A DNA stretch of 64,000 nt from Nannocystis bainbridge (GTDB lineage Bacteria > Myxococcota_A > Polyangia > Nannocystales > Nannocystaceae), in NCBI RefSeq assembly GCF_028368995.1, contig NZ_JAQNDL010000001.1:3712001-3776000 (forward strand), given 5' to 3'. Within the stretch, counting starts at the first letter, position 1, and each line of letters opens with the position of its first letter. Position numbers and translations under genes: made by a program. Below are positions 12,350-59,915 of the stretch, in pieces. The notes below the pieces were generated by a model. That model was not told the origin of the DNA, did no database searches, and saw nothing but the letters and a program-made list of their open reading frames with translations.

Positions 12350-13099
12350 CGGGCGACGCTACCGACAGGCTCGTCGGCAAGCAACTGCCATCCCGCGGCC
12401 GCCGGCTGCGGCGTGCACCGGCGCACGCGACCGCCCCGCTCGCGCACACGACCGGACGACCGCGGCACCGCGAATCCGCGGCGACTGCACGTCCGTCGGC
12501 GACGCTCCGCGAGAGCCGCCCCGCGAGCGCGTGCAGGCGAACGCGCTCGACCGCTGCGACGCCCCGGCGAGCCAACAGCCGCGCTGCGAGACCCACGGGA
12601 CCTGGAGCCGCCGCCGGCCTCGCGCTCGCCGACGGCTGGGCGTGCCCGGCTCGTCCGCGGGCCGGGGCCCACTGTGCACAGGCTGGGTCACGCCGCCCGG
12701 CGGCCGTGAGCGTGCATCTCGCCCTCGCACGAGCCCGGGCCGCGGGCTGATGAGGGGACCGCGGCGATGCTGGCTATCAAACACGACAGGCGCCGGCTCC
12801 TGGATCGGCGATCGCCGATCGGCGCAGGCGGGCTCGTCCATCGCTCACATGAACGACCGCTCATCGAGGCGCGGCGCGGATCTGCGCGTCCGACGATTGC
12901 AATCACAGCAGCCGGCGAATCAGGCGGCGAGGGCGAGCCGGGCCGCCTGGCCCCATCCATCGACTCGCTGCAAGATCGCCGGAGCACGGCGAGGCCGCGC
13001 GGCTCTTTCAACATGTCTCTTGGCGCATGTCCTTAAAAACATTCTATACAGCCGCGGCAATTGTCTCCACGGGCGCTCTCGCCCTGCGCGGGGTGGTCG

Positions 13100-13143
13100 C
13101 TTGACGGGCACGGCGAGTTGGGGCATCTTGCGCGCCCGTCAAG
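13100..13143 (+). promoter_or_regulatory. Candidate sigma70-type promoter overlapped by an inverted repeat, upstream of the RNA repair operon
   Basis: TTGACG-17bp-CATCTT; arms CTTGACGGGC (13100-13109) and GCCCGTCAAG (13134-13143). Confidence 0.45.
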
Positions 13144-13325
13144 GGGTCACGCCTCATGCCCGTCTCGGCCCGTTGAGCGCCTGCGCGCTCCCTCGTCCCC
13201 GGCAGTCGCCATTCGTGGCCTCTCGTCGAATGCTCCGTGGCCGCCCGGCCGCGCGGCCGTCGACGCGATAGCGAGCAGCCGGGGGGCCCAGCGGGAGCGG
13301 CCGGCGGCGCGAAGGAGCGTCCGTC

Positions 13326-14120
13326 ATGACACCGCCCATTTTAAAATATCCCCGCACGCAGCACCTCGAGGGCTCGCGCTTCCAGCACGGCGACCACGAC
13401 CTCGACGCGGTGCCGTTCCGCGACCTCCGCGGCCGCTTCGTCGTGGTCGAGGAGAAGATGGACGGCGGCAACGCCGGCATCAGCTTCGACGGCTCAGGCC
13501 AACTGCTGCTGCAGAGCCGCGGCCACTACCTGACCGGCGGCGGCCGCGAGCGCCACTTCGACCTGCTCAAGCGCTGGGCCAACACCCACGTCGACGACCT
13601 CTATTTGGCCCTCGGCGAGCGCTTCGTGATGTACGGCGAATGGATGTACGCCAAGCACACCTGCTTCTACGACGCGCTGCCCCACTACTTCATGGAGTTC
13701 GACATCTTCGACCGCGAGACCGGCGAGTTCCTGTCGACCGCGCGCCGCCGCGAGCTGCTGCGCGGCCTGCCGGTGGTCTCGGTCGCGGTGCTGTGGGAGG
13801 GCCACCCCGAGCGGCCGGCCGACATCACCCGCCACGCCGGCCCGTCGCGGTTCAAGACCCCACAATGGCGCGAGCGGCTGGCCGCAGCCGGCGCGTCGGC
13901 CGGGGTGTCGCAGGCCCAGGTGATCGCCGAGACCGACGGCTTCGACGACATGGAGGGCCTCTACATCAAGGTCGAGGAGGAGGGCCGCGTCACCGCTCGC
14001 CTCAAGTGGGTCCGCGCCAGCTTCCTCAACGCGATCCTCGACAGCGGCAGCCACTGGCTCGACCGCCCGATCGTCCCCAACCAACTCGCCGACGACGTCG
14101 ACCTGTGGGCCCCCGCGTGA
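13326..14120 (+). CDS. ATP-dependent RNA ligase family protein
   Basis: KYPRTQHL N-terminus, motif I EEKMDG, YGEW, FDIFD, EGLYIK, and K in RLKWVR; AAGGAG RBS. Confidence 0.88.
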   Translation: MTPPILKYPRTQHLEGSRFQHGDHDLDAVPFRDLRGRFVVVEEKMDGGNAGISFDGSGQLLLQSRGHYLTGGGRERHFDLLKRWANTHVDDLYLALGERFVMYGEWMYAKHTCFYDALPHYFMEFDIFDRETGEFLSTARRRELLRGLPVVSVAVLWEGHPERPADITRHAGPSRFKTPQWRERLAAAGASAGVSQAQVIAETDGFDDMEGLYIKVEEEGRVTARLKWVRASFLNAILDSGSHWLDRPIVPNQLADDVDLWAPA

Positions 14121-14151
14121 GGCCCACGGCGCGTCGACGGAGGACCTCGCC

Positions 14152-15270
14152 ATGCTGCTTCCCTATCCCTGCCCCGCCGATCCGGCGATCTCGACGGCTG
14201 TCCCCTGGGACAGCTTGTGGGAGCCGTGGATCGCGCCGATGGCCGCGTGCCCGCAAGACCCGGAGCACCACGCCGAGGGCGACGTCTGGACGCACACCAA
14301 GATGGTGTGCGAGGCGCTGGTCGACCTGCCCGGCTGGCAAGCGCTCGCGCCCGCCGACCGCGAGGTGGTGTTCGCGTCAGCGCTGCTCCACGACATCGCC
14401 AAGCCGGTGTGCACGCGCATCGAGGACGGGCGGATCCGCCAGCCCGGTCACTCGCCGCGCGGGGCGCTGATGGTCCGCGCGATGCTTTGGAAGATGGGCG
14501 TCGATCCGCTCGTGCGCGAGCGGATCGCCGCGCTGGTGCGGACCCATCAGATCCCGTTCTTCCTCATCGACCAGGACGACGCCCGCCGGCGCGCGGCGCA
14601 GATCAGCCAGACGGTCCGCTGCGACCACCTGGCCCTGCTGACCCGCGCCGACGCGCTCGGACGGATCTGCCGCGACCCGCAGCGACTGCTCGACAACATC
14701 GACCTGTTCGTCGATTTCTGCGCCGAGCACGAATGCCTCGACCAGCCGTGGACGTTCCCGAGCGCGCACACGCGATTCGTGTACTTTCGCAGCGAGGATC
14801 GCGACCCGCGCTTCGCGGTGCACGACGACACCCGCTGCGAGGTCGTCTTGATGTCGGGCCTGCCCGGCAGCGGCAAGGATCACTGGATCGCGCACAACCT
14901 CGACCTGCCGGTGATCTCGCTCGACGCGCTGCGCGAGGAGCTCGACCTGTCGCCGACGGGGCCGCAGCACGCGGTGATCCAGGCCGCGCGCGAGCAAGCC
15001 CGCGAGTACCTGCGCCGCGGGCAGTCGTTCGTGTGGAACGCGACCAACCTGAGCCGCGAGCTGCGCGGGCGCCTGATCGATCTGTGCACCGATTACGGGG
15101 CGCGCGTGCGGGTCGTGTTCCTCGACACGCCGTATCGCCGGGTGCTGCGTCAGAACCGCGAGCGCGAGGCCCAGGTGCCGCTGGCGGCGATCGAGCGCAT
15201 GCTGGGGCGCTGGGAGCCGCCCGACCTGACCGAGGCGCATCAGGTCGAGTGGATCTTGCAAGGCGATTGA
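14152..15270 (+). CDS. HD-domain phosphoesterase fused to P-loop (AAA_33-like) polynucleotide kinase, HD-Pnk-like
   Basis: HHAEGDVWTHT, LLHDIAK, Walker A GLPGSGKD, WNATN; GGAGG RBS. Confidence 0.88.
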   Translation: MLLPYPCPADPAISTAVPWDSLWEPWIAPMAACPQDPEHHAEGDVWTHTKMVCEALVDLPGWQALAPADREVVFASALLHDIAKPVCTRIEDGRIRQPGHSPRGALMVRAMLWKMGVDPLVRERIAALVRTHQIPFFLIDQDDARRRAAQISQTVRCDHLALLTRADALGRICRDPQRLLDNIDLFVDFCAEHECLDQPWTFPSAHTRFVYFRSEDRDPRFAVHDDTRCEVVLMSGLPGSGKDHWIAHNLDLPVISLDALREELDLSPTGPQHAVIQAAREQAREYLRRGQSFVWNATNLSRELRGRLIDLCTDYGARVRVVFLDTPYRRVLRQNREREAQVPLAAIERMLGRWEPPDLTEAHQVEWILQGD

Positions 15271-19604: not shown

Positions 19605-20747
19605 TCAGCGCACGACGAAGCGCAGGCCGGCGGCCTGCAGGCGCTCGATGAGCAGCTCGCCGCAGGCGGCCGCCGTGGTCGACACGCCACCTGTCTCTTT
19701 GCACATGTCTCGTTGTAACACCAGGCACAGCGCCGTCTCGCCGGCCATCTTGGCCGTCTCGTCGTAGCCCGGGTCGCCGCCGGAGACCTCGGCGATCACC
19801 GGCGGGTCGTCGCCGGCGCGGCCGACGAAGGTCACCTTGAACCAGCTCTTGGCCCGCACCTCGGGCGCGGGGCCGCTGCCGGGCGGGTGCATGCGCGACA
19901 GCAGGCGGCGCAGCGGGCCGATCTTGGCCGCGCCGACCAGCGCCCCGGCGCCCGCGATCGCCAGGCCGACGTGGTAGAGCCGCGGCATCGCCACGTAGTG
20001 CGCGTAGCTGAACTCGGGCCCGTAGTCGCCGCGCAGCCGGGCCGAGCGGCGAGCGATCTGCGGGTCGATGGTCGGCATCGGCACCGCCCAGCGGCCGAGC
20101 TCGCGCTGGTAGTGGATCGCGGCTCGCTTGCGTCCGCTCGGAGCGCCGCTCCGCGGCTTGCGTGAAGGGGTCGGGGCGCCGAGCACGCCGAGCGCGGACG
20201 CGAGCGTGCCGCCGGAGAAGCTGCCGCGGCCCTCGAGATAGCCGGCGATCGTCAGCGGCCGGCCCTGCGGGAGGGCGCGCGTGGTCCACAACACGCCGAG
20301 GTCGGTGGGGATGCTGTCGAAGCCGCAACACGGCAGCACGAGCACGCCGCGGGCCCGCGCCGCGGCGTCGTACGCGGCGATGATGCTTTCGACGAAGGCG
20401 GGCTCGCCGGTGAGGTCGAGGTAGTCGGCACCCTGCTCGACGCACGCGCGCACCACTGGTTCGCCGTAGCGCACGTAGGGACCGACGGTCGTTAGGATCA
20501 CGCGCGAGCTGGCCGCCATGCGCGCGAGCGCGGCGGGGTCGTCGGTGTCGGCGACGACGATCCCGACCTCACGCCCGAGCTCCGCGGCGACCGCGGCGAG
20601 CTTGTCGCGCGAGCGCCCTGCGACCGCGAGACGCACCTCGGGGGGCGCGTGGGCGGCGAGGTAGGCGGCGCACAGACGGCCGACGAAGCCGGTCGCGCCG
20701 AACACGGTGATGTCCCAGTCTCTCGCGGATGCAGCGGGCGGCGTCAC
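19605..20747 (-). CDS. Saccharopine dehydrogenase-like oxidoreductase
   Basis: VFGATGFVG, TVGPYVRYGE, DLTGE, CGFDSIPTD, GDPGY. Confidence 0.92.
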   Translation of the reverse strand: MTPPAASARDWDITVFGATGFVGRLCAAYLAAHAPPEVRLAVAGRSRDKLAAVAAELGREVGIVVADTDDPAALARMAASSRVILTTVGPYVRYGEPVVRACVEQGADYLDLTGEPAFVESIIAAYDAAARARGVLVLPCCGFDSIPTDLGVLWTTRALPQGRPLTIAGYLEGRGSFSGGTLASALGVLGAPTPSRKPRSGAPSGRKRAAIHYQRELGRWAVPMPTIDPQIARRSARLRGDYGPEFSYAHYVAMPRLYHVGLAIAGAGALVGAAKIGPLRRLLSRMHPPGSGPAPEVRAKSWFKVTFVGRAGDDPPVIAEVSGGDPGYDETAKMAGETALCLVLQRDMCKETGGVSTTAAACGELLIERLQAAGLRFVVR

Positions 20748-20800
20748 CGGGCGAGGATACCTTGTTTCTCGCGCGCGACCTGGCGATACACTCGTCCGCC

Positions 20801-25897
<5,097 letters not shown>

Positions 25898-26196
25898 TGT
25901 CCGCAGGGACAGGTCGCGGAGCGACATGTCCTCCGGGACATGTCGCGCGATCGCCCGCTCGACCCCTGCAGCGCATGAATGCGCGCCCAGCCATGCGCGC
26001 AAGATCCGAAGGGAGCACCCCGACCTGGACTATCGGAACATCCCCGGGGTCAAATCACCCCGACGCGCCGATCTAACCTGTCCCAAAGGACATTCATGTC
26101 GAACGACGCCGTGTCCCGCAATCACATGTCCCGAGGGACATGCGCGATCAAGACGATCGGCGCCGCGACCGCCGCTGTCACATGTCCGAACGGACA
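25898..26196. repeat. Cluster of five TGTC-N6-GACA palindromes
   Basis: Perfect copies at 25898, 25927, 26079, 26127, 26183. Confidence 0.85.
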
Positions 26197-26389
26197 GATG
26201 AATCCGCGCCCCGTCGATGCGAACCCAGCCACTGGCACATCGTCCCGCGCCCCCTTTTGAGCCCTTCTTTAAAAGGGGCGCACGCGGGATGCGATCGAAT
26301 CTGGCCGCTCCCGCGCACATCAGAAGAGGGTTGTTACCGGGCTCCATCTCGGGTCATGCCCATTCGGGCGTGGCCCACCGCGCGAACGA

Positions 26390-26878
26390 TCAGCTCGCCA
26401 TCGACGAGGGCGAGGCGCAGTACAGCGGGCTGTGCAGCGCGTCACCGAGGCGGCGGACCACCTCGTCGTCGGTCAGGTCGAGCCAGTCGTGGCCGATCTC
26501 GACATGCACCCGCGCGTACGCGCGCGGCGACAGCGCTCGACGCAGGTCGCCGAGCGCACGCGGCGGGGCGACGAGGATCACTCGCTGGACGCGGCGGTCG
26601 CCGACGCCGCGGTCGACGAACGCGGCGATCTGGCCGCTGAACTCGACCTCGGCCTTGTCGTGCGGGTTGCTGCGCGGCTCGAACGTGTGGCGGGCGGCGC
26701 CCGCGGACCCGCGCGAGCGGCCTGGGCGGTCTTCACCGACCTCATGGTTGAGCTCTCGCCCGCTCGTGAATCCGTCGCCGAACGGCCGGGTCAGCGCGGC
26801 GCCGGGTGCTTCCTGCACCAGGATCCGGCTACGCGAGCCGTCCATGAGGACGATCCAGGTAGGAGTGTGGGGCTTCAT
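26390..26878 (-). CDS. Host attachment protein family (baeRF12-like)
   Basis: TWIVLMDGSRSRI, DRPGRS, ILVAPPRALGDLR, DLT motifs. Confidence 0.85.
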   Translation of the reverse strand: MKPHTPTWIVLMDGSRSRILVQEAPGAALTRPFGDGFTSGRELNHEVGEDRPGRSRGSAGAARHTFEPRSNPHDKAEVEFSGQIAAFVDRGVGDRRVQRVILVAPPRALGDLRRALSPRAYARVHVEIGHDWLDLTDDEVVRRLGDALHSPLYCASPSSMAS

Positions 26879-27131
26879 GTCAAAAACCCTGATCGGGGAA
26901 GCCTCGTGAGGCCAACCGAAAAATTCCAACCTGGAGCGTCGCCGCGCCACCGGAGCGGATTTGCCGACATCCTGGTGAATGCAGCCGGCGGCAGCCTCGC
27001 CCCCAAGCAGGCTCTACGGGCTGTCAGGGCCCGCTGGCGGGCTGGCGCGGCAGATTTCACGGATCTGGCCGGAGTTCCGTGGATTGACGACCCGTTCAGC
27101 ATATTGTACGCCTGAAGAGTCCGAGGAACCG

Positions 27132-27926
27132 ATGAGCGCCGTCCTGCCGCACGCCCCGCTGTCCGTCCTGAGCCCCTCGCCTGCCCCGGTCGCGCTGCGC
27201 CTTGACGGCGTCACCAAGCGCCACGGCGCCGGCGGCGACGCGGTCGTGGCGCTCGACACGATGTCCTTCGCCGTGAAGAAGGGCGAATTCGTGTGCGTCG
27301 TCGGGGCCTCCGGCTGCGGCAAGTCGACCATGCTGAACCTCGTCGCCGGGCTCGACACGCCCTCGGCCGGCAAGGTCACCGTCGCCGGCGAGCGCCCCGC
27401 TCTGATGTTCCAGGAGTCGGCGCTATTCCCCTGGCTCAGCGTCGAGGAGAACGTCGCCTTCCCGCTGCAGATGCAGGGCCTGTCGCGCAAGGCCCGGGCC
27501 GCGCGGGTCGCCGAGCTGCTGCACCTCGTCCACCTCGACAAGTTCGCCAAGCGGCGCCCGCACGAGCTTTCGGGCGGCATGAAGCAGCGCGTCGCCCTCG
27601 CCCGCGCCCTCGCCCAGCAGGCCGAGCTGCTGCTGATGGACGAGCCGTTCGCCGCCCTCGACGCCATGATGCGCGACCACCTCCACAGCGAGCTCGAGAC
27701 CCTGTGGCAGAAGACCGGCCTCACCGTCGTGTTCGTCACCCACAACGTCCGCGAGGCCGTGCGCCTCGGCGACCGCGTCCTGCTCCTGTCCTCGCGGCCA
27801 GGTCGGCTCGTCGCCGAGTACCAGGTCGACCTCGACCGCCCGCGCCGCATCGAGTCGCCCGAGGTCGCCCGCCTCGCCCGCACGATCACCGACCGCCTGC
27901 TCGAGGCCGCCCGTGCCGCAGCGTGA
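27132..27926 (+). CDS. ABC transporter ATP-binding protein (nitrate/sulfonate type)
   Basis: GASGCGKST, LSGGMKQR, LLLMDEPFAALD, FVTHN. Confidence 0.93.
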   Translation: MSAVLPHAPLSVLSPSPAPVALRLDGVTKRHGAGGDAVVALDTMSFAVKKGEFVCVVGASGCGKSTMLNLVAGLDTPSAGKVTVAGERPALMFQESALFPWLSVEENVAFPLQMQGLSRKARAARVAELLHLVHLDKFAKRRPHELSGGMKQRVALARALAQQAELLLMDEPFAALDAMMRDHLHSELETLWQKTGLTVVFVTHNVREAVRLGDRVLLLSSRPGRLVAEYQVDLDRPRRIESPEVARLARTITDRLLEAARAAA

Positions 27927-28914
27927 GCTCGCCGGCGACCCCCTGGCCCGCGCGCACCTGCACGCCGTGCCCGGCGGCGACGACGGCGGGGCCACCGGTC
28001 GTGAGGGACATGTCCTGATCGACATGCCCGAACGGACAGAGGCCGAGGACCCGCTGCGCGCCGGCCTGCGCGCCGCCGTCGGCGACCCCTCGCACGACAG
28101 CCCCGGCCCCGGCGACCGGCCCGGCCGCGGGCGCGCGCTGTGGTCCAGCGCCTGGCCCAAGCTGACCGCGGTGGCGATGGCCCTGGTGGTGTGGGAGCTG
28201 GTGGTGCTGAGCGGCTGGCGGCCCGAGTACGTGCTGCCGGGCCCGGGCGCGGTGCTCGGCCGGCTGTGGACCGACCTGCTGGCCGGCGACATCGGCGTGG
28301 CCGCGGCGATCACGATGAAGCGGGCGGTGATCGGCTACGCGATCGCGCTGGTCGCCGGGGTCAGCCTCGGCCTCGTGCTCGCGCGGGTGAAGGTCCTGCG
28401 CACCGCCGCGGGCTCACTGCTGACCGGCCTGCAGACGATGCCGAGCGTGGCGTGGTTCCCGCTGGCGATCTTGCTGTTCCAGCTCAGCGAGGCGGCGATC
28501 CTCGCGGTCGTGGTGCTCGGCGCGGCGCCGTCGATCGCCATCGGCCTGCTCACCAGCACCGACCAGGTCCCGCCGCTGCTGGTCCGCGCCGGCAAGGTCA
28601 TGGGCGCCCGCGGCTTCGCGCTGTACCGCCACATCATCATCCCCGCCGCCCTGCCCGGCTTCGTCGCCGGCCTCAAGCAGGGCTGGGCGTTCGCCTGGCG
28701 CAGCCTCATGGCCGGCGAGCTGCTCGTCATCATCGGCCACGCCCCGTCGATCGGCGTGCGCCTGCAGTTCTCGCGCGAGCTCAGCGACGCCGAGGGCCTG
28801 CTCGCCTGGATGCTCGTCGTCATGCTGCTCGGCGTGCTCGTCGACGGCCTGGTGTTCGGCGCGCTCGAGCGGAAGATCCGCGAAGGCCGCGGGCTCACCG
28901 CCGAGCACGCGTGA
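27913..28914 (+). CDS. ABC transporter permease (SsuC/TauC type)
   Basis: LQTMPSVAWFPL, AWRSLMAGEL, multiple TM helices; start uncertain. Confidence 0.88.
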   Translation: MPQRELAGDPLARAHLHAVPGGDDGGATGREGHVLIDMPERTEAEDPLRAGLRAAVGDPSHDSPGPGDRPGRGRALWSSAWPKLTAVAMALVVWELVVLSGWRPEYVLPGPGAVLGRLWTDLLAGDIGVAAAITMKRAVIGYAIALVAGVSLGLVLARVKVLRTAAGSLLTGLQTMPSVAWFPLAILLFQLSEAAILAVVVLGAAPSIAIGLLTSTDQVPPLLVRAGKVMGARGFALYRHIIIPAALPGFVAGLKQGWAFAWRSLMAGELLVIIGHAPSIGVRLQFSRELSDAEGLLAWMLVVMLLGVLVDGLVFGALERKIREGRGLTAEHA

Positions 28915-28980
28915 GGCCCACGGCCGCAGGATGAATCCGAGCGGATGCTCGCGGCCTCGTCCGCGAGGCCGCCTGCGACG

Positions 28981-31531: not shown

Positions 31532-31713
31532 AAGACCCCTCCTTCGCGCCACCATCTCCGATCGCCCAGCTCGGGGCAAGAGCCCCCAACCGAGGGGTTC
31601 CCCGCCTCCAAATCTGCGGAAGTGCGCCTACGGAGGCGCGCCTGCGCGCGCGGGCCCGCCAGCCGCCGGCGTGGACCGACGGTGTACCTTCGGCATGGAC
31701 CCAGGAGCACGTG

Positions 31714-33401: not shown

Positions 33402-33461
33402 GCGGGTGTCCGGGTCCGGACACCCGCCCGTCGCCCATTTTAAAACATGTCCCGAAGGACA
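33402..33461. repeat. 12-bp-arm hairpin plus a TGTC-N6-GACA site
   Basis: GCGGGTGTCCGG-GT-CCGGACACCCGC (33402-33427); TGTCCCGAAGGACA at 33448. Confidence 0.7.
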
Positions 33462-35386: not shown

Positions 35387-35456
35387 GGTCCCTGAGGACA
35401 TGTCCATCAGGACATGCCCATCAGGACATGCCTCTCAGACCATGTCCGAAGGTTCC
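35387..35456. repeat. Five phased 14-bp units of the TGTC-N6-GACA motif
   Basis: GGTCcctgagGACA TGTCcatcagGACA TGCCcatcagGACA TGCCtctcagACCA TGTCcgaagg. Confidence 0.85.
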
Positions 35457-40635: not shown

Positions 40636-40672
40636 CCCGAAGCTTCGGCACACGCGAGGTCCGAGACCTACA

Positions 40673-40991
40673 TGTCCCCGAGGACATGTGATTTCCCCCG
40701 CGACCCGCCGGCGCCGACCTCGGCGTGAGGCGCTCTTCAGCGAGATCTCGCCCCGGCCCACGATCGAGAACCGCCGAACTGCTCAGCCCGCTCGTCGCAG
40801 CGAGGACACGTGAGACGCGGTCGCTCGCCTCCCCGACATGTCCCTCGGGACATGTGAACCCGCCAGCGTCCAAAGCTCGGCGGGAGCGCGCCTCCACGGG
40901 TCGTCATTCAGCCGAGCATCGGCTCAGCCAGGTCGCTCGCGCTTCAACATGACCTCCTGGACATGTCCCATGCGACATGTCCTGCCCGATT
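40673..40991. repeat. TGTC-N6-GACA cluster between convergent genes
   Basis: Perfect copies at 40673, 40839, 40964; phased degenerate units at 40950 and 40978. Confidence 0.85.
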
Positions 40992-41944: not shown

Positions 41945-42072
41945 CACCGGACCCCCCGCGACGAAGGGCGAGCGCATGGCGTGCGGCGTGAAGCGGGGCT
42001 GTGCATGCCACGCATGGTAGCCGCGCCCGCCCGCCACGACCAGCGCCCCATCACCTCACCCGGCGTCGGCCC

Positions 42073-42142
42073 AGGCCGCCACGACATGGCCGATGCGACA
42101 TGTCTATTCGCGCATGACCATTTTAACATGTCCCGAAGGACA
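42073..42142. repeat. Five phased 14-bp TGTC-N6-GACA-like units
   Basis: Units at 42073, 42087, 42101, 42115 (degenerate) and 42129 (perfect). Confidence 0.75.
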
Positions 42143-42165
42143 TATCCATCGACCACGCGCACCGC

Positions 42166-43200
<1,035 letters not shown>

Positions 43201-43239
43201 CGGGCTGGGATGACCGATCGCGCTGGCGGCGTCAACCCC

Positions 43240-43896: not shown

Positions 43897-44151
43897 GCTC
43901 GAAAAGGTAGCGCGATCGCGCGAGCCGCCACGCGACGCGTGTGATGCCGCGCTCACGCCCGCCGCGGGCCGCCCGCCGCGCCTCACAGGACATTCCCCAA
44001 AGGACATGTCCTCAAAGCCATCATCGTCTCCATCCCCGCGAGCAGCCGATCGTGACACCTGACCGATCCGCCAGGTCACCCTTCGTGCGCGCTTGCGCGC
44101 CCCGGGCTCGCGCGGCTGCGCGCGTGGCGTCGCCGGGCCGTTCGAGGCAGC

Positions 44152-45090: not shown

Positions 45091-45098
45091 TCCGCGCC

Positions 45099-45391
45099 TG
45101 TCCTTCTGGACAGCAGTCAAATGACTCGGCGAGGTCGCGACCTCGGCCGCGAGCATGTCTCTCCGGACGTGTTCTCTCCGCGTGATGCTCCTGCAGCGCC
45201 GAGCCACGAGGCTGCGCACGGCAATCAACATGTCCCTCAGGACATGTCACATACGCGACGCTCCTGAGGCGCCGGGTCACGAGGCCGTACCCAGGAAACA
45301 TGTCCCTCAGGACATGTCCTCACCGCGACCTCGCAATCTCGAATTGCCGAGACCCCGCCGGGGCGAGGTCTCGGGCCTGTCCCTCGGGACA
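45099..45391. repeat. TGTC-N6-GACA cluster between convergent genes
   Basis: Perfect copies at 45099, 45231, 45301, 45378; near copy at 45156; ACATGTCCCTCAGGACATGTC occurs twice. Confidence 0.85.
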
Positions 45392-45393
45392 GC

Positions 45394-46938
45394 TTACTCC
45401 TTCTTCGCGTCGGCCTGGGCCTTGAGCTGCTTGAGCAGCTTCTCGCCCTCGTCGATCGCGTCGTCCTCCTCGGTGCGTTGGTCGCCGGCGAGCACGGACG
45501 TATTGACCTTGATGTTCTCGAAGCGGGCCAGCATCTGGAACAGCGCCAGCCGCGACGCGGGCGCGGGGCCCTCGGTGTCGAACTCGTCGGACTTGGCGGG
45601 GATCTTGATGTCGCCCGCGGCCCCGTCGACGATGCACTTGTGGGCCACCTTGAGGGCCGCCTCGGAGTCTTTGACCTTCGACGGCACCCCGTTCAGCAGC
45701 GGGAACTCGCTGTTGAAGCTGTAGAGCATCGTCTCGAGCGCCGCCGTCCCGCCGCAGCTGGCGTACAGCGGGTCGTACTTGTCGGGCACCGTCGCCGTGC
45801 CGATGTCGATCTGGCCGTCCATGTCGCGCTTGGCGAAGTCGGTGCCGGCGGTCGACAGCAGCTGGAAGTCGGTGAGCAGCTGGCGGAACAGGAACGAGTG
45901 GAGGAACGCCCGCTTGAGCTCGTTGCCGCCCAGCTTCTTGCTGAACACGAACACCAGGTCGTTGTAGCCGCCGCCGAGGTCCTCGCGGAAGAAGCCGTAG
46001 CCGATCTTCTTGTCGATCGTGACGCCCTGGGCCCGCTCGGGCACCAGCGGTCCGCCCTCGATCGCCCACACCGTGTGCGCCTCACCGAGGAAATCGACGC
46101 GGTCGCGCAGCTCCTTGTAGTTGGTGAGCATCGTCAGCAGCTTCTCGTCCTTCTCGATCGCCTCGGCCCAGGCCTTGAACGGCGCATCGACCGACTCCTT
46201 GAACGGCTTCGGCGGCACCTCTTCCTGGCCGAAGTCCTTGGCGATCTTCTTCAGCACGCTGCGGAACGGCTCGTCCTGACTGACCAGGCGGCGGGCGTAC
46301 ATCTTGACGCCCATCCACTTCTTCCAGATGTCCTGCTTGCCGTCGGTGTACTCCTTGCGCATCGCCTCGGCCACGCCCTTGGCGTCGCCGGACAGCTCGC
46401 CGAGCGCCTTGTCGGCCTCGGGCGAGCCGAAGAAGCTGAGCAGCTTGAGGTGCGGGTACGCGTCGAGCACCTTCGCCTTGGTCTCGTCGCCGAAGCTGTA
46501 CTTGAGCTTCTCGACCAGCAGCGCGAACTCCTTGCGGGCGTTCTTGCGGAACGTCCACGCGTCGGCGTCGGCCACCCCGAGGATGATCGCTCGCGCCTTG
46601 TCGGCCTTGCTGAGCCCCTTCTTGACCGTCACCACCGCCAGCACGCCCGGCTGCAGCACGTAGTTGCGGCCGTCCATCGGCTCCACGTCGCCCTCGATCA
46701 CGTCGGGCAGGCGCTCGGTGTTCGAGTAGATGTGGACCAGCAGCGGACGCAGCGCCTCACGCATCTCGTCCGGCGGGATCTCGGGGATCGCCACGCCCTT
46801 GTCGTCCTTGCGGCCGGCCTTCGCGTACTCCATCTCGCGCTCGAGCCTCTCCTGCCGGCCTTCGCCGCAGGCGGGAAGCGCGCCCGCGAACAGCGCGAGC
46901 GTGAGGAGCGTGAGGGTGGTGGCGTGGGTTCGTCGCAT
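45394..46938 (-). CDS. Hypothetical Lys-rich lipoprotein
   Basis: MRRTHATTLTLLTLALFAGALPAC lipobox; very strong codon bias; GGAG RBS. Confidence 0.82.
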   Translation of the reverse strand: MRRTHATTLTLLTLALFAGALPACGEGRQERLEREMEYAKAGRKDDKGVAIPEIPPDEMREALRPLLVHIYSNTERLPDVIEGDVEPMDGRNYVLQPGVLAVVTVKKGLSKADKARAIILGVADADAWTFRKNARKEFALLVEKLKYSFGDETKAKVLDAYPHLKLLSFFGSPEADKALGELSGDAKGVAEAMRKEYTDGKQDIWKKWMGVKMYARRLVSQDEPFRSVLKKIAKDFGQEEVPPKPFKESVDAPFKAWAEAIEKDEKLLTMLTNYKELRDRVDFLGEAHTVWAIEGGPLVPERAQGVTIDKKIGYGFFREDLGGGYNDLVFVFSKKLGGNELKRAFLHSFLFRQLLTDFQLLSTAGTDFAKRDMDGQIDIGTATVPDKYDPLYASCGGTAALETMLYSFNSEFPLLNGVPSKVKDSEAALKVAHKCIVDGAAGDIKIPAKSDEFDTEGPAPASRLALFQMLARFENIKVNTSVLAGDQRTEEDDAIDEGEKLLKQLKAQADAKKE

Positions 46939-49457: not shown

Positions 49458-49463
49458 CACCCT

Positions 49464-53312: not shown

Positions 53313-54809
53313 TCATCGGTGCGACGGTGATTGATCGGCCAGCAGCCCCACTACCCGCTCGAGCAGCACCAATTGTTCCGGCTGCAGCTCGGGCAAGCGG
53401 GCCACCAGCGCCAGCCGCAGCTCCGCGCCTTGCGGCAGCGGCAGGCTGAGGAACCCCCACGCTTGCGAATCGTCGCCGCTCTTGACCGCCGTCGCCGTCC
53501 CGCGGCGCAGCTCGAACCCTGGCACCCCGATGCGCGTCAAGATCGGCGCCAGCGACGGTGACAGCTCGCGCCAGCGCGCCAGCGCCGGGTCCTCCATGTC
53601 CTTGAAGACATGTTCTTTTCGCCTTGTCTCTTCGGACAGGCGATCGAAGTCGGCCAGCAGCTCGATCACCGCGCGCCTGCGGTCGCGCAGCACCAGGCGG
53701 TCGCCGGTGAACGCCGGCAGGTGGCGCAGCAGCTCGTGGTAGCCGAGCAGCCCCGCGACCACCAGCAGCCCCGCGACCGCGCCCGTCAGCGTCCACCAGC
53801 CGCCGACGCCGATCACGTTGAGCAGCGCCAGCCCGGAGAACATCGCCGTCGTCAGCCACAGCACCACCACCCCGCGGCCGTGGGTGAACCCGCGGGCCAG
53901 CAGGCGGTGGTGGATGTGATCGCTGTCGGGCGCGAAGATCGGCTGCCCGCGGGCGGCCCGGCGCGCGATCGACAGCCCCATGTCGAGCAGCGGCAGCGCC
54001 AGCACCAGCAGCGGCAGCGACACATCGATGATCGCCACCCGCTCCGGCACCGGCGCGATCTGCAGCAGCAGCGCCGGCAGCAGGAACCCGAGGAAATAGC
54101 TGCCCGCGTCGCCCATGAACACGCGCGCCGGGTGGCGGTTGTGCACCAAAAACCCGAGCACCCCGCCCAGCGCCGCCGCGCTGACCCACCCGAGCGCCAG
54201 GTCCGGCTGCGGGTGCAGCAGCGTCGCCACCAGCACCACCGCCAGGCCGATCGCCGTGTTGCCGCCCGCGAGCCCGTCGAGCCCGTCGCTGAGGTTGATC
54301 GCGTTGACCGACGCCACCAGGAAGCCGAGCGTGATCACCGGCTCGATCGCCGCCAGCGGCCCGAGCAATTCGGCCAGCGCCGGCCAGCGCAGCCCGACGG
54401 CGAACACCGCCACTCCGGCTGCGAACAATTGCAGCGCCAGCTTCACCCGCGCTCGCGCGCCGACCAGATCGTCGTAGAGCCCGACCAGCCCGCACAGCAG
54501 CGCCCCGAGCAGCGCCCCGCTCAGCGGATTGCGCGACAGCCACTCGTGCACGAGCGACAGCTCGCTGGTACCGACCAGCCCGCGGAACGCCACCGCGCCG
54601 ATCGCCACCATCATCACGAACCCGCCGACCCGCGCGATCTCGCCCTGATGGACCTTGCGCAGGCTGATCTCGCGGTCCGAGCGGCCCAGCGCGCGCCAGC
54701 CCCGGATCGCCCACGGCATCGCCACGGCCACCAGCACGAACGCCACCGCGACCGCGATCCACAGCACCCACGTGGCGGCGCTCACCGGGGCCCCCCGGCG
54801 TTCCCGCAT
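53313..54809 (-). CDS. MraY/WecA-like polyprenyl-phosphate GlcNAc-1-P transferase (GT4 family) with C-terminal extension
   Basis: GLYDD, NAINLSDGLDGL, FMGDAGS, DSDHIHHRL. Confidence 0.92.
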   Translation of the reverse strand: MRERRGAPVSAATWVLWIAVAVAFVLVAVAMPWAIRGWRALGRSDREISLRKVHQGEIARVGGFVMMVAIGAVAFRGLVGTSELSLVHEWLSRNPLSGALLGALLCGLVGLYDDLVGARARVKLALQLFAAGVAVFAVGLRWPALAELLGPLAAIEPVITLGFLVASVNAINLSDGLDGLAGGNTAIGLAVVLVATLLHPQPDLALGWVSAAALGGVLGFLVHNRHPARVFMGDAGSYFLGFLLPALLLQIAPVPERVAIIDVSLPLLVLALPLLDMGLSIARRAARGQPIFAPDSDHIHHRLLARGFTHGRGVVVLWLTTAMFSGLALLNVIGVGGWWTLTGAVAGLLVVAGLLGYHELLRHLPAFTGDRLVLRDRRRAVIELLADFDRLSEETRRKEHVFKDMEDPALARWRELSPSLAPILTRIGVPGFELRRGTATAVKSGDDSQAWGFLSLPLPQGAELRLALVARLPELQPEQLVLLERVVGLLADQSPSHR

Positions 54810-56050: not shown

Positions 56051-57337
56051 ATGTCCGAAAAGCCGGTGACCATTTCCCTGAACGATCCCCAACCCGACGG
56101 TGCGGCCGCGCTCGATCTCGACGTCTGCGTCGTCGGCCTCGGCTACGTCGGCCTACCTACCGCCGCCGTCCTCGCCACGCGCGGTCGTCGCGTCGCCGGC
56201 TTCGACCTCCGCCGCGACATCCTCGACACCATCAACGCCGGGCGGATCCACATCGTCGAGCCCGAGCTCGACGCCCTCGTGCGCGCCGCCGTGCTCGCCG
56301 GCACCCTGCGCGCCGTCCCCGAGCCCGTCCCCGCGCGCACCTTTTTGATCTGTGTACCCACACCGATCACCTCCGACCACCGCCCCGACCTCGCCGCCGT
56401 CGAAGCCGCCAGCCGCGCCCTCGTGCCCGTGCTGCGGCCCGGCAACCTCGTCGTCCTCGAATCCACCGTCCCGCCCGGGACCCTGCGCGACCTCGTGGCC
56501 CCGATCCTGCGCGAGAGCGGCCTCGTCATCGGCAAGGACCTGTTCGTCGCCCACGCCCCCGAGCGCGTGCTGCCCGGCGCCGTGCTGCGCGAGGTCGTCG
56601 AGAACGAGCGCATCGTCGGCGGGCTCACCGACGCCTGCACCGACCGCTGCGCCGTCTTCTACGAGGGCTTCGTGCGCGCCGAGGTCCACCGCACCAGCGC
56701 CGAGGTGGCCGAGTTCACCAAGCTGGCGGAGAACGCCTACCGCGACGTCAACGTGGCCTACGCCAACGAGCTGGCCAACGTCAGCACCCACCTCGGCCTC
56801 GACGTGTGGGAGGTGATCCGGCTGGCGAACCGCCACCCACGCGTCCAGATCTTGCGCCCCGGGCCGGGCGTCGGCGGCCACTGCATCGCCGTCGATCCGT
56901 GGTTCATCGCCGCCAGCGCGCCCGAGCACACCCCGCTGATCCAGGCCGCGCGGACCGTCAACGACGGCCGCCCCGAGCGCGTCCTGGGCCAGATCCGCCG
57001 CCTCGCCGGCAAGCTGCGCGCGCCGACCATCGCCCTGCTCGGCCTGGCCTACAAGCCAGACATCGACGACCTGCGCGAGAGCCCGGCGCTGCACATCGCC
57101 GAGGCCGTGCACCGCGAGTCCCTCGGCGACGTCCTGCTGGTCGAGCCGCACCTCAGCGCCTCGCCGATCGCCGGCTGCCCGCTGGTCGGGCTCGACGACG
57201 CGCTCGCGCGGGCCGACATCCTGGTCCTCCTGGTCGCCCACCGCGACTTCCGCCGCCTGCGCTCCGCCGACCTGCTCCGCGTCATGGTGGTCGACACCGT
57301 CGGCCTCCTGGCCGGGGCCGACAACAGGCGCGTATGA
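56051..57337 (+). CDS. wecC: UDP-N-acetyl-D-mannosamine dehydrogenase
   Basis: GLGYVGLP, ESTVPPG, PERVLPG, GPGVGGHCIAVDPWF, AYKPDIDDLRESP. Confidence 0.92.
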   Translation: MSEKPVTISLNDPQPDGAAALDLDVCVVGLGYVGLPTAAVLATRGRRVAGFDLRRDILDTINAGRIHIVEPELDALVRAAVLAGTLRAVPEPVPARTFLICVPTPITSDHRPDLAAVEAASRALVPVLRPGNLVVLESTVPPGTLRDLVAPILRESGLVIGKDLFVAHAPERVLPGAVLREVVENERIVGGLTDACTDRCAVFYEGFVRAEVHRTSAEVAEFTKLAENAYRDVNVAYANELANVSTHLGLDVWEVIRLANRHPRVQILRPGPGVGGHCIAVDPWFIAASAPEHTPLIQAARTVNDGRPERVLGQIRRLAGKLRAPTIALLGLAYKPDIDDLRESPALHIAEAVHRESLGDVLLVEPHLSASPIAGCPLVGLDDALARADILVLLVAHRDFRRLRSADLLRVMVVDTVGLLAGADNRRV

Positions 57338-58947
57338 CCAGCTCGCGGCTCTTCCGTCACGGTCCCGGGACGCTCTTCCGCACGGCCTCGCACCTGCCTC
57401 CGCGGCAGATCGCCTACCAGCTGCGGCGGCGCCTCGGCGGCCCCGCGCGCCGGCCCAAGGCCACCAGCCTCGAGGGCGTCACCGGCCTGCTCGCGCGCCT
57501 GCCCGCGCCCACCCCCGAGGGCGAGCCGAGCCCCGATGGCGTCTGTCTCTTGGGACAGCCGCCGCACGACCCGCTGCGCGCCGGCTGGGACCCGCCGGTC
57601 GGCCCGCTCTACCTCTACACCTTGCATTACCACGGCTGGCTGCAGCGGCTCCCGCCCGCGCTGGCCCTGGCGACGATCGATCACTGGATCGTCCACCACC
57701 CCGAGGGCGTCGGCTGGGAGCCGTACCCGACCGCCGTGCGGGCGCTGCACTGGCTCGGCTGGCTCTCGGGACATATCGACGATCTCGACGGCATGACCCG
57801 CCGGCGGCTGCTCGCCTCGCTCGCCGGGCAATTGCGGCACCTCGAGCGCCACCTCGAGCTCCACCTCGACGGCAATCACCTGTGGACCGACCTCGCCGCG
57901 CTGGCCGCCGGCGCGCTGGCCCTCGACGGCCCGCGCGCCCACCTGCTCGCGCCCGCGGTCGCCCGCTTCGCCGCCGTCACCGGCGAGCAGCTCGCGCTCG
58001 ACGGCTTCCACCGCGAGCGCACGCCCTCCTACCATTGCCTGCTCGCCGAGCAATTGGCCGGCGTCGTCGCGCTTGGGCCCGAGCGCGTCGACCCACGCGC
58101 CGGCCGGGCGCTGCGCGACAACCTCGCGCGCATGCTCGCCGTACTGCCGGCCTTCGCCCACCCCGACGGCGACGTCGCCCTGTTCGGCGACAGCCAGCGC
58201 GGCCTCGTCACCCCCGCGGCGCTGGCGACTCGCTGCGGCATCAGCCTGTCCCAGGGGACAGATCACAACGCCCCCGCCTCCGGCCTGTTCCGCCGCGCCT
58301 GGGGCCCGTGGACCTTGCTGTGGAACGCCGGCGGCCTCGGCATGCCGCAGCAGGTCGGCCACATCCACGCCGACTGGCTCGGCTACGAGCTCTCGCTCGG
58401 CGGCGAGCGGATCGTCGTCGACGCCGGCGTCGGCACCTACGAGGTCGGCCCCGAGCGGGCCTACGCCCGCAGCACCCGCGCCCACAACACCGTCACCGTC
58501 GGCCCCGGCGACGCCGACCAACATGAACTTTGGGCCAGCCACCGGATCGGCGGCCGCGGCGAGCTCGTCGACCTGTCCTTCGGGACATCCGAGGTCTCGG
58601 CCGGCGTACGCGGCTTCCGCTCGCGGGCGGTGCACCACCGGCGGCTGGCGTGGGACGGCCGCTCCCTGCGCTGTAGCGACCGCGTCCTGCCCGATCACGG
58701 CGAACCTGTCCCTGCGACCATGCGGATCCACCTCCCGCAGACCTGTGTCGTCGCGGTCGACGGCCCGGTCGTCCATGGGCGCACCCCCGGCGGCCGCGGC
58801 TTCGCCGTGCGCGGCCCCGCCGACCAGCGCTGGCAGGCCACCGCCGCGGCGGGCTGGACTGCCATGTCGCGCCCGGCCCCGCGCCACTGCCTGGCCCTGC
58901 CGGTGGGTCCCGGCGGCCTCGAGATCGCCTTCGAGCTCGAGACCTGA
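57334..58947 (+). CDS. Heparinase II/III family protein
   Basis: WEPYPT, HLDGNHL, ERTPSYH, GHIHAD, RSTRAHNTV; ATGA overlap with wecC. Confidence 0.88.
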   Translation: MTSSRLFRHGPGTLFRTASHLPPRQIAYQLRRRLGGPARRPKATSLEGVTGLLARLPAPTPEGEPSPDGVCLLGQPPHDPLRAGWDPPVGPLYLYTLHYHGWLQRLPPALALATIDHWIVHHPEGVGWEPYPTAVRALHWLGWLSGHIDDLDGMTRRRLLASLAGQLRHLERHLELHLDGNHLWTDLAALAAGALALDGPRAHLLAPAVARFAAVTGEQLALDGFHRERTPSYHCLLAEQLAGVVALGPERVDPRAGRALRDNLARMLAVLPAFAHPDGDVALFGDSQRGLVTPAALATRCGISLSQGTDHNAPASGLFRRAWGPWTLLWNAGGLGMPQQVGHIHADWLGYELSLGGERIVVDAGVGTYEVGPERAYARSTRAHNTVTVGPGDADQHELWASHRIGGRGELVDLSFGTSEVSAGVRGFRSRAVHHRRLAWDGRSLRCSDRVLPDHGEPVPATMRIHLPQTCVVAVDGPVVHGRTPGGRGFAVRGPADQRWQATAAAGWTAMSRPAPRHCLALPVGPGGLEIAFELET

Positions 58948-58985
58948 GCCCGGCGGTCCGGGTGCTGTGCTAGATCGGTGCGCGC

Positions 58986-59579
58986 ATGACCGCGACAACT
59001 CGCACGCCCGACGCTGAAGTCCACCCCATGTTCCTCGACCGCTGGTCGCCGCGCGCCTTCCGGCCCGGGTCGCTGACCGACGCGCAGCTCGCCAGCCTGT
59101 TCGAGGCCATGCGCTGGGCCCCGTCGAGCTACAACGAGCAGCCGTGGATGGTCGTGTACGGCCACGGCACCGGCACCGACGATCACAAGCGCGTGCTCGG
59201 CTGCCTGGTCCCGTTCAACCAGTCCTGGGCCCAGAGCGCGCCGCTGGTGATGATCCTGTTCGGCCGCCGCCGCTTCGCCTCGTCCGGCAAGGCCAACCGC
59301 CACGCCGGCTTCGACTGCGGCAGCGCGTGGATGTCCCTGGCCCTCCAGGCCCGCGTGCTCGGCCTCCACGCCCACGCCATGGCCGGCTTCGACGAGGCCA
59401 AGACCTACACCGAGCTCGGCGTCCCCGAGCCCGACTTCGAGGCGATGGCCGCGATCGCCGTCGGCGTCCAGGGCGACGTCGCCGACCTGCCCGAGGGCCT
59501 GCGCGCCCGTGAGGCCGCCAGCAGCCGCGTGCCCGCGGCCAGCTTCCTCCACCGCGGCCGCTTCAGCGCCGCCGGCTGA
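58986..59579 (+). CDS. Nitroreductase family protein
   Basis: RWSPRAF, RWAPSSYNEQPW, HAMAGFD. Confidence 0.93.
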   Translation: MTATTRTPDAEVHPMFLDRWSPRAFRPGSLTDAQLASLFEAMRWAPSSYNEQPWMVVYGHGTGTDDHKRVLGCLVPFNQSWAQSAPLVMILFGRRRFASSGKANRHAGFDCGSAWMSLALQARVLGLHAHAMAGFDEAKTYTELGVPEPDFEAMAAIAVGVQGDVADLPEGLRAREAASSRVPAASFLHRGRFSAAG

Positions 59580-59602
59580 CCTCCGCAGCCGCCCCGAACG
59601 AC

Positions 59603-59915
59603 GCACGAGGTGTTCCGCAAAGACATCTCGTGCTGTCTCTTCGGACAGCTTCGCGCGCCGCGCCTGCCGCGATAATGAGATGTCCGCAGCGACATCTTCC
59701 GCCGCGGCCGGCGGACCTCCGGCGCGTCTTCCGGCCCACGCACGGGATGTCCTTGAGGACATCTCCGGCCCGCGCACGAAATGTCCTCACGGACCTTCCG
59801 GCCCACGCACGAGATGTCCTTGAGGACATCTCGTGCTGTCTTTCAGGACAGCATCGCGCCGCGCCCGCCTCACGCTAGATGTCGCAGGGACATCTCGTGC
59901 TGTCTTTCGGGGAGC
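59603..59915. repeat. Composite palindromic repeat array built on TGTC-N6-GACA
   Basis: Perfect cores at 59634, 59681, 59748, 59815, 59837; 33-34 bp tandem repeat x3; 30-bp palindrome at 59807-59836. Confidence 0.88.

Follow-up and report, generated by a model that had tools for sequence, protein, structure and literature searches.

The closest described system to the element reported here is HIP1 (GCGATCGC), a highly iterated palindrome of cyanobacteria. According to the abstracts of two studies, HIP1 is over-represented 15-300-fold, is conserved both inside open reading frames (ORFs) and in the stretches that separate them, and shows no evidence of a role at the level of peptide, RNA, or gene regulation (PMC5861425, PMC13756078). 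The roles proposed in those abstracts are nucleoid structure and, later, DNA uptake (PMC5861425, PMC13756078), and the summary of a preprint reports that HIP1 sites raise the transformation efficiency of cyanobacteria (bioRxiv 2024.09.10.611283). In this report we describe a palindrome, GGACATGTCC, that recurs throughout much of a 64,000-nucleotide stretch of the myxobacterium Nannocystis bainbridge (contig NZ_JAQNDL010000001.1, positions 3,712,001 to 3,776,000; hereafter the window) and across the genome that holds it. This element appears to be an undescribed counterpart of HIP1. We group it with the highly iterated palindromes, among which its array architecture is previously unreported. 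Full-text literature searches returned no account of it for myxobacteria or Nannocystis, in agreement with the initial annotation of the window, which was made from the sequence alone and knew of none.

Several other systems resemble the Nannocystis palindrome in part. The DNA uptake sequences (DUS) of Neisseria and the uptake signal sequences (USS) of Pasteurellaceae are lineage-specific and over-represented in genes as well as gaps; they build up through point substitutions, and behind genes they are often found as inverted pairs. Met-boxes bound by MetJ and the plasmid centromeres bound by ribbon-helix-helix proteins are built from palindromic units that tile head-to-tail, such that every joint is again palindromic, with one protein dimer per unit and contacts between neighbours. 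Within the genus itself, Lampson and Rice reportedly described retron-related repeats of N. exedens in 1997, which a sentence in a review characterizes as duplicated msr/msd copies. We take these to be long msDNA-like copies and set them apart from the 14-bp unit by their description only. Finally, as outlined in one study, the repetitive extragenic palindromic (REP) sequences of enterobacteria and pseudomonads and the bacterial interspersed mosaic elements (BIMEs) that they form are short palindromes with a common consensus, present in hundreds to thousands of copies, in numbers that differ between strains, near gene 3ˊ ends and in convergent gaps (PMC12306157), as is the Nannocystis motif.

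A 10-bp palindrome repeated in a 14-bp register

The element was initially annotated as a 14-bp palindrome, TGTC-N6-GACA, with at least 27 perfect copies in the window against about 0.5 expected from base composition. A pattern search yields 28 copies, which include all 27 listed positions and one additional copy at 14199. Among 100 shuffles of the window that preserve dinucleotide composition, the mean count is 0.82 (standard deviation 0.94, maximum 4), near the earlier estimate, and none of the 100 reaches 28. The annotation had staked its claim on an enrichment that is specific to a spacer of six nucleotides. In the complete assembly (G000; 11.05 Mb in 5 contigs, 71-72% GC), TGTC-Nk-GACA occurs 3663 times at k=6 and 29-155 times at each other k from 0 to 14, and the claim therefore stands.

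The extended consensus given previously, ACATGTCC-N4-GGACATGT, is correct as a majority consensus. The site profile reads a-C-A-TGTC-C-(y n n r)-G-GACA-T-G-t, with base shares to the left of TGTC of 0.58 A and 0.37 C at position -1, 0.71 C at -2, and 0.55 A at -3. Sites flanked by A..T number 1458 and those flanked by C..G number 651, and the centre is as variable as had been stated, with 854 different hexamers. Perfect TGTCC-N4-GGACA sites number 1987 genome-wide (control spacers, 2-16), which exceeds every single-mismatch variant (1-407 each), and 6245 sites match at 9 or more of the 10 positions, compared to 139-272 for spacers of 3, 5, and 7. The most constrained bases are T0, G1, C3, and C4 together with their mirror images (TG.CC / GG.CA), and position 2 is the loosest.

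Although TGTC-N6-GACA is a real motif, it is incomplete as a unit, because it is the joint between two neighbouring copies of GGACATGTCC. The unit itself is this 10-bp palindrome, with the core CATG, plus four variable bases, and n such units make up an element. Pairs of the core number 3736 for CATG-N10-CATG and 2073 for CATG-N24-CATG, whereas other spacings give 62-476 pairs, and a third core is usually found another 14 bp along from a pair. Exact period-14 chains of 2, 3, 4, 5, 6, and 7 CATG cores number 1265, 328, 213, 159, 75, and 22, respectively, with a few of 8-12 units. For control tetramers and periods there are 14-353 pairs and longer chains are almost absent, with the exception of one 13-unit chain of period 13. 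This phased spacing and the period-14 chains therefore define the element as (GGACATGTCC + 4 variable bases) x n. The initial annotation missed this register, and also the strong enrichment within genes that is described below.

Further measures show the same periodicity. The bases outside paired CATG cores (GGA.../...TCC) carry as much information as the inner ones, the spacing of neighbouring sites has maxima at 14, 28, 42, and 56 bp (144, 88, 61, and 36 cases), and CATGTCC-Nk-GGACATG peaks at k=4, 18, 32, 46, 60, and 74. Sites are also clustered, with 863 of 3658 successive gaps no longer than 100 bp compared to 119 expected under a Poisson model. The half-site ATGTCC occurs 10,199 times on both strands, about half of these with a partner arm at N4. 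The remainder without a partner arm, roughly 45%, are by our own estimate only ~1.6x the expectation from composition. Thus the Nannocystis excess needs the pair of units and the half-site alone is barely enriched, which distinguishes it from HIP1.

The longest array (G000 C3:1237915-1238190) has 20 units if one missing unit is allowed, 16 of them with exact CATG. Only GGACATG is kept along this array and the TCC half decays, and therefore long arrays look directional rather than symmetric.

Location in genes and intergenic regions

Gene positions were taken from our own rough calls based on GC3 periodicity (7561 genes, 82% of the genome), and all densities by class depend on these calls. Of the 3663 copies, 2259 are intergenic, 1358 lie fully inside predicted genes (37%), and 46 straddle a gene edge. 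Density is highest in convergent gaps (2.5 per kb), followed by tandem gaps (1.09), divergent gaps (0.45), and genes (0.15). Likewise, the share of gaps that carry a site with 9 or more of 10 matches is 56% for the convergent, 28% for the tandem, and 18% for the divergent class. Of the 28 copies in the window, 8 are within predicted genes; four convergent gaps hold 13, and tandem gaps hold the other 7. The preference of clusters for gaps between convergent genes that had been noted at the outset is thus evident both in the window, where it accounts for 13 of 20 intergenic copies, and in the entire genome.

This placement also bears out the earlier argument that the motif is no ordinary promoter operator. 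A promoter-operator regulon was rejected because divergent gaps are the poorest intergenic class and because sites in tandem gaps are nearer to the upstream stop codon than to the downstream start codon. Dimeric winged-helix operators of the TGT-N8-ACA type, such as those of LexA (CTGT-N8-ACAG) and PadR (ATGT-N8-ACAT), have the same outer spacing as the Nannocystis site and serve regulons of tens of promoter sites. This resemblance is a tentative one, and a literature search for the PadR consensus gave no match.

The site nearest to a gene end often starts in or directly past the stop codon, with peaks at -3, +2, and +16 nucleotides. At the -3 peak, the TGA stop serves as a variant first triplet of the site. 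At the +2 peak, the TGA stop supplies the GA of GACATGTCC, and this arrangement recurs 14 bp farther on. Long arrays are almost all intergenic, where gaps carry arrays of 2-7 units and rarely 12 or more. Genic copies are mainly single joints of the cCTGTCC-N4-GGACAGg type.

In the interiors of confidently called genes (5.4 Mb), there are 720-722 copies compared to 29.8 +/- 3.0 under resampling of synonymous codons, which is a 24x excess. Observed over expected counts for control spacers in the same resampling are 19/26.5 for k=3, 10/22.3 for k=9, and 23/24.5 for k=12, all near or below expectation. The motif codons ACA and GGA are each used at about 2% within their own codon families. The palindrome is in excess by about 24-fold in genes and by more than 100-fold overall.

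Origin and conservation of the copies

Comparative sequence analysis of three gene sites, those in the heparinase II/III-like gene of the window, in 6 strains revealed no insertions or deletions, and each of the 18 rows retains both tetramers. The same three sites were aligned with orthologues of 52-55% protein identity in two further genera, and none of the three exhibited a motif-sized insertion; one outgroup orthologue has a one-codon gap at one of the sites. At the place of the motif, the orthologues from other genera carry ordinary codons, for example CTC TCC ATT GGC CCC against CTG TCC TTC GGG ACA. In this small sample of three sites, the alignments thus point to base substitution in place, and not to insertion, as the origin of the gene copies.

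The copies were also compared with 454 kb of another species at a mean identity of 85%. For genic copies (n=55 and 58), the arms are 0.90-0.95 identical, compared to 0.78-0.83 for the flanks and 0.74-0.75 for the centre. For copies in alignable gaps (n=21 and 15), the corresponding values are 0.84-0.88 for the arms and 0.63-0.71 for the flanks. Most gaps that bear arrays cannot be aligned between the species and their copy number differs. Among 86 orthologous gaps of this unalignable kind, a site is present in both species in 19, in this genome only in 5, in the other only in 15, and in neither in 47; hence 19 of the 24 gaps with a site in this genome are also occupied in the other species. 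A force on the DNA sequence itself, either selection or drive, maintains the motif.

Tandem duplications of 14, 28, 34, and 70 bp are found at arrays and clusters. Because the 70-bp and 34-bp duplications each carry one copy, arrays and clusters also grow by local duplication. This raises the possibility that the element is a slippage-prone, selfish minisatellite without any reader, in which a self-complementary 10-mer misaligns by 14 bp and expands or contracts neutrally. Such a process would fit the tandem duplications, the variation of array copy number among species, and the sharp drop of array length past 7 units. However, it cannot make ~720 isolated genic copies by substitution against codon bias, cannot explain arms that are more conserved than flanks and centres, and cannot explain one sequence shared by all species of the genus. 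The observed constraint speaks against a minisatellite as a complete account, and we regard this explanation as very improbable.

Evidence for a motif read as duplex DNA

The 1145 copies in tandem gaps can be oriented by transcription. Their centres exhibit no strand bias (CGAG 62 versus CTCG 58, and CGAA 60 versus TTCG 51), and variants that would create U-G or C-A in the RNA are equally common (0.18 versus 0.19). Symmetric positions pair hardly more than independent half-site consensus sequences predict and, given one arm, the opposite arm carries much more information than the centre does. From these patterns we infer that the motif is read as duplex DNA, in a symmetric manner. An RNA hairpin under selection was rejected because there is no strand bias, no wobble bias, and almost no covariation.

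Mobile or larger repeats were examined as well. An all-against-all BLAST comparison of 7326 flanks (82 bp each) found any distant match for only 548, consistent with the little flank conservation reported initially. The flanks are unique in the other 6778, which supports the earlier view that this is not a copied REP-sized element. With regard to the ends of insertion sequences (IS), inverted half-sites exhibit no enriched long spacing up to 4 kb, and there are at most 7 pairs at any distance above 150 bp. A miniature inverted-repeat transposable element (MITE) or IS-derived repeat was rejected on the basis of the unique flanks and the absence of a fixed long spacing of inverted ends. A link to phages was also rejected, as 8 single matches among 2.9 million viral contigs were judged to be at chance level. 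The unit GGACATGTCC equals the consensus half-site of p53; the p53-like domain PF00870 was not found, which is a weak negative because the control matched nowhere either.

The placement of copies recalls a REP-like hairpin at gene ends, which could act as RNA, by stabilizing the 3ˊ end of an mRNA or by coupling to translation termination, or as a DNA cruciform. Stable hairpins do form, and the peaks directly past stop codons, the richness of convergent and tandem gaps relative to divergent ones, the clustering, and the differences in copy number between species are all compatible with such a role. The motif also shares four of five defining features of REPs as listed in the cited study (palindromic, short, common consensus, and many copies; PMC12306157). 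In contrast to REPs, which seldom overlap genes, 37% of the Nannocystis copies reside in predicted genes, apparently made there by substitution, at 24 times expectation in confident-gene interiors and with two of the host genes confirmed by Pfam. Moreover, the REP-associated tyrosine (RAYT, Y1) transposase PF01797 has 0 matches in this genome at a marker completeness of 90.5%, with the control positive in 6 of 14 genomes. Rfam has 0 matches in the window at gathering score. The Nannocystis motif further differs from REPs and BIMEs by its strict 14-bp register, by the lack of a strand-specific signal or wobble preference, and by hardly any pairing signal, and its long arrays lose the half that is complementary to GGACATG. 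We therefore consider a REP-like hairpin distinctly unlikely.

Intrinsic transcription terminators would also place hairpins downstream of genes, and a palindrome could operate in both directions in convergent gaps. However, the site profile has no T-run, and the region 25600-45500 contains only one terminator-like motif copy, at 33448, with a total of 4 terminator-like structures in the region compared to a shuffle mean of 5.0. A copy is present within 120 nucleotides downstream of only 9 of 102 tRNA genes, and the two copy-bearing tRNA tails examined have an ordinary GC-rich hairpin before the copy, in one case followed by a T-tract. Given also that copies are enriched in genes and that termination needs no fixed stem sequence, we attach hardly any credence to terminators. 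Taken together, the absence of a larger repeat, of a RAYT, of strand bias, and of a T-tail, along with the near-absence of pairing covariation, led us to reject REPs, MITEs, RNA hairpins, and terminators as the element class.

Taxonomic range and distribution along the genome

The survey of relatives suggested by the initial annotation recovered the motif in all same-genus genomes and, in low copy, in two sister genera. ATGTCC-N4-GGACAT occurs 652 times in this genome. Each of the 10 same-genus genomes carries it, at 16-576 copies; the two sister genera have 23 and 22 copies, the other 18 genomes have 0-1, and the reversed control gives 0-1. A global scan with a 24-bp double unit, conducted on one genome for each of 185,579 species, returned 78 matching stretches. 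Of these, 64 are from Nannocystis, 9 from metagenome-assembled genomes (MAGs) of Nannocystaceae, and 2 from MAGs of Myxococcales (75 of 78 combined); the 3 strays have no further copies. At the loci of named Nannocystis species, the density of additional copies is 0.08-0.38 per kb for k=6, and there are hardly any for k=4, 5, 7, or 8. The palindrome is thus specific to Nannocystis and the Nannocystaceae. Runs of metagenome contigs from soil, wetland, and root match the window over small shares only (0.05-0.09).

In one sister-genus genome (G013; L124-L130), there are seven near-identical, coding-like multi-copy elements with one ATGTCCCTCAGGACAT each. Seven of its 22 copies therefore represent one multi-copy element, and fewer copies are independent. 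In the other (G011, about 60% GC; L136-L158), the 23 copies are mostly single, have AT-rich flanks, and read roughly TTAACATGTCC-N4-GGACATGTTAA. Several are directly upstream of genes encoding putative lipoproteins that have Thr/Ser/Glu-rich linkers. No candidate for a regulator adjoining the G011 copies emerged from the ORFs, which were listed only. This low-copy form may reflect an ancestral, regulon-sized state of the site.

Along the Nannocystis genome, copy density climbs steadily with local GC content: it is 0.03-0.08 per kb where GC is below 68% and reaches 0.45-0.55 per kb where GC exceeds 73%, a trend opposite to that predicted from composition only. One motif-free stretch of 44 kb (G000 C2:741506-785869) encodes an RND transporter and two P-type ATPases. 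In five relatives, the only matches to it are dispersed and non-syntenic, so this mosaic stretch is probably an accessory island. A second motif-free stretch of 42.6 kb at 67.6% GC (G000 C2:2100542-2143127) encodes EF-G and contains a repeated segment that we take to be tuf. In a 20-kb sample of it, identity to five relatives is 95-96%, compared to 85-93% elsewhere. Based on these two stretches, the motif is missing from recently acquired DNA as well as from those core operons that are under most constraint and tightly packed. Yet another motif-free stretch contains an unusual fusion, a 1305-amino-acid frame (G000 C1:1185076-1188990; L173 5076-8990) that combines a terpene synthase, a squalene-hopene-cyclase-like repeat, and a FAD-binding/BBE oxidase.

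These distributions bear on whether the palindrome is a self-DNA signal for uptake or recombination similar to DUS and USS, where a competence or recombination protein prefers the palindrome, and the motif accumulates by substitution and is kept by drive. The presence of conserved, substitution-made copies in both genes and gaps is as expected for such a signal, as is a density that falls as constraint rises, from convergent through tandem and divergent gaps to genes. The genus-wide occurrence, together with a form of few copies in the two sister genera, the drop in density from 0.55 to 0.03 per kb with falling local GC, and the mosaic nature of the 44-kb motif-free stretch, which is non-syntenic in 5 relatives, point in the same direction. 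In addition, an abstract and a preprint summary now argue for a role of HIP1 in transformation (PMC13756078; bioRxiv 2024.09.10.611283). On the other hand, uptake signals have no need for 14-bp phased arrays or tight clustering, and the second of the motif-free stretches is not foreign DNA but the core region with the highest conservation. Known uptake sequences are asymmetric and are mostly abundant singly, whereas Nannocystis exhibits enrichment only for the N4 inverted pair and its phased arrays, with unpartnered ATGTCC at only ~1.6x its compositional expectation. Overall, an uptake or recombination signal seems unlikely to be the function of the motif.

Methylases and the frequency of the motif

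A different form of drive could be linked to methylation or repair. If CATG, ACATGT, or GACA were the target of an orphan methylase, biased repair or protection might raise the frequency of the motif. Extended HIP1, GGCGATCGCC, shares the build GG-N-(4-bp palindrome)-N-CC with GGACATGTCC, and CATG is a known target of adenine methylases. The Nannocystis genome has 12 matches to N6/N4 methylases and one D12 match, all without an assignable specificity. By comparison, HIP1 is recognized by two methylases, as noted in an abstract (PMC13756078).

The profile of co-occurring methyltransferases that the initial annotation had suggested yields no phyletic signal of use. D12 is present in 25 of 31 related genomes irrespective of the motif, including motif-free genera, and the N6/N4 family is present in 19 of the 20 genomes searched. 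Matches to N6/N4 methylases number 9-13 in near-complete Nannocystis genomes and 0-7 in the other genera searched, although some are two halves of one gene. A C5 methylase was not found in this genome and is present in 4 of 20 genomes; this removes a route through deamination and very-short-patch repair. Furthermore, biased repair does not explain the fixed 14-bp register, and the abstract of one HIP1 study takes conservation as evidence of selection and not of biased repair (PMC5861425). We consequently judge a methylation- or repair-linked drive to be improbable.

A symmetric DNA-binding protein as the proposed reader

HIP1 and the Nannocystis element are both short palindromes that are hyper-abundant in one lineage, occur in genes and gaps, are conserved, and have spread by substitution. 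They differ in sequence and in phylum, and also in that the Nannocystis unit forms 14-bp phased arrays at gene ends, whereas the HIP1 abstracts give only a periodicity of 10-90 kb (PMC5861425, PMC13756078). The initial annotation had proposed either a site for a chromosome-organizing protein or a HIP1-like palindrome tied to methylation. Much of this proposal holds, in that the motif is genome-wide, specific for one spacing and one lineage, and behaves as HIP1 does, but the tie to methylation is unsupported by the methylase searches.

Our best reading, to which we assign a probability of roughly 45%, is that the palindrome is the site of a symmetric DNA-binding protein with a genome-wide role, as has been proposed for HIP1. 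In this model, a sequence-specific protein with two-fold symmetry would read the motif as double-stranded DNA. Each TGTCC-N4-GGACA would take one dimer, with half-site centres 9 bp apart, and dimers might pack side by side every 14 bp on arrays. A separation of 9 bp between half-site centres is the geometry of many operators of dimeric winged-helix proteins. The 14-bp neighbours on arrays and the clustering of sites (863 versus 119) suggest cooperative side-by-side binding. Because promoter-side gaps are avoided and copies are spread over thousands of genes, the role should be genome-wide rather than gene-specific, and might involve nucleoid or DNA-topology organization at gene ends or the marking of the cell's own DNA. 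The MetJ and centromere arrays supply a geometric model for this arrangement. However, those arrays are present at a handful of promoter or centromere loci, whereas Nannocystis has about 2000 arrays plus single genic sites and avoids promoter-side gaps.

Several observations weigh against such a protein. The binding model is based on symmetry, spacing, and analogy only, and an uptake bias or a drive by biased repair would yield the same genic excess and, if still active, the same conservation. Units can form stable hairpins of -11 to -21 kcal/mol per 26-nucleotide stretch. There are slight excesses of complementary pairs at positions -1/+14 (2116 versus 1730 expected), of C-G at positions 2/11 (146 versus 86), and of T-A at 4/9 (127 versus about 100, by our own arithmetic from base frequencies). 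A structure-based role is therefore possible given these hairpins and the REP-like placement. Arrays grow in part by tandem duplication of 70, 34, and 28 bp, which needs no protein. Tight binding should hinder transcription, yet genes are enriched in copies, and the class densities hang on rough gene calls.

A more elaborate version of the protein-binding model, which we consider doubtful, is that arrays are loading sites for a cooperative protein that polymerizes at the 14-bp register on GGACATGTCC. Such blocks, located past stop codons and in convergent gaps, would serve as chromosomal punctuation, acting as insulators against topological stress or transcription collisions, and single genic sites would be low-affinity anchors for nucleoid compaction. 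If true, this would constitute a sequence-specific nucleoid architecture with no described bacterial counterpart, on chromosomes of 11-13 Mb.

Copies and neighbouring genes in the window

The copies in the window are listed in Table 1. The first junction of the convergent gap at 25898 begins directly past the TGA stop codon of a gene (20729-25897) for a 1722-amino-acid protein with Ser/Thr kinase, AAA_16/NACHT-like ATPase, GAF, HisKA, and HATPase_c domains. At 26255-26292, the same gap carries an inverted repeat that is rich in GC and has runs of T and A (GCGCCCCTTTT...AAAAGGGGCGC); it looks like an ordinary bidirectional terminator that is separate from the motif.

Two clusters include longer duplications. 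The junctions at 45231 and 45301 are held within a 70-bp tandem duplication (45160-45320), and the nearby junction at 45378 is kept in position in three other species with a changed centre. In the cluster at 59634..59850, positions 59730-59832 form a 34-bp tandem repeat of 3.1 copies, and the alignment of the window to five relatives breaks exactly at this cluster.

Positions 1-13000 of the window have 65-69% GC and zero copies of the motif, in line with the genome-wide rise of density with GC. Three paralogous genes with cysteine-rich DUF4215 repeats lie in tandem in this segment (3623-8031). It also contains a larger gene with DUF4215/DUF1554 (10019-12349), a gene for a Ser/Thr kinase, and one of the VKOR family. 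This part of the window may be younger or under different constraint.

Table 1. Palindrome copies in the window, by position. Junctions are matches to TGTC-N6-GACA (exact) or to TGTCC-N4-GGACA (9/10); + and - denote the strand of the gene.
Position	Copies	Location	Further features
14199..14212	exact junction	47 nt into predicted gene 14152-15270, +	start codon uncertain
25898..26196	5 exact junctions: 25898, 25927, 26079, 26127, 26183	convergent gap	2-unit CATG chains 25922-25945 and 26122-26145
28011..28038	exact 28011; adjoining 9/10 at 28025	near 5ˊ end of predicted gene 27913-28914, +	14-bp register; start codon uncertain
33448..33461	single junction	tandem gap	sole copy in 25600-45500 with T-rich tail
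35387..35447	exact 35401; 9/10 at 35387 and 35415	fills 56-bp convergent gap	phased array, four CATG cores at 14 bp, units AGGACATGCCCATC; TRF period 14, 2.7 copies
40668..40982	exact 40673, 40839, 40964; 9/10 at 40950	convergent gap	cluster; 3-unit chain 40945-40982
42082..42142	last junction exact, 42129	tandem gap	four-unit CATG chain
42851..42864	single junction	inside predicted gene 42166-43200, -	
45099..45391	4 exact junctions: 45099, 45231, 45301, 45378	convergent gap	
53597..53638	junctions 53597, 53625	inside glycosyltransferase family 4 gene 53313-54809, -	28 bp apart; PF00953 1.2e-32
57544..58587	junctions 57544, 58247, 58574	inside heparinase II/III-like gene 57334-58947, +	PF07940 2.8e-30
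59634..59850	5 exact junctions: 59634, 59681, 59748, 59815, 59837; 9/10 at 59782	tandem gap	

Implications

HIP1-type palindromes have been a puzzle for three decades, with cyanobacteria as the textbook case, and an example from the unrelated myxobacteria provides a second system. The fixed register and the two-fold symmetry of the Nannocystis element yield concrete predictions about the protein that would read it. The motif also marks resident Nannocystis DNA, and may thus aid in binning or classifying metagenomic contigs. Finally, given the effect on transformation stated for HIP1 in the preprint summary (bioRxiv 2024.09.10.611283), the motif is worth considering in the design of constructs for Nannocystis strains that produce natural products.

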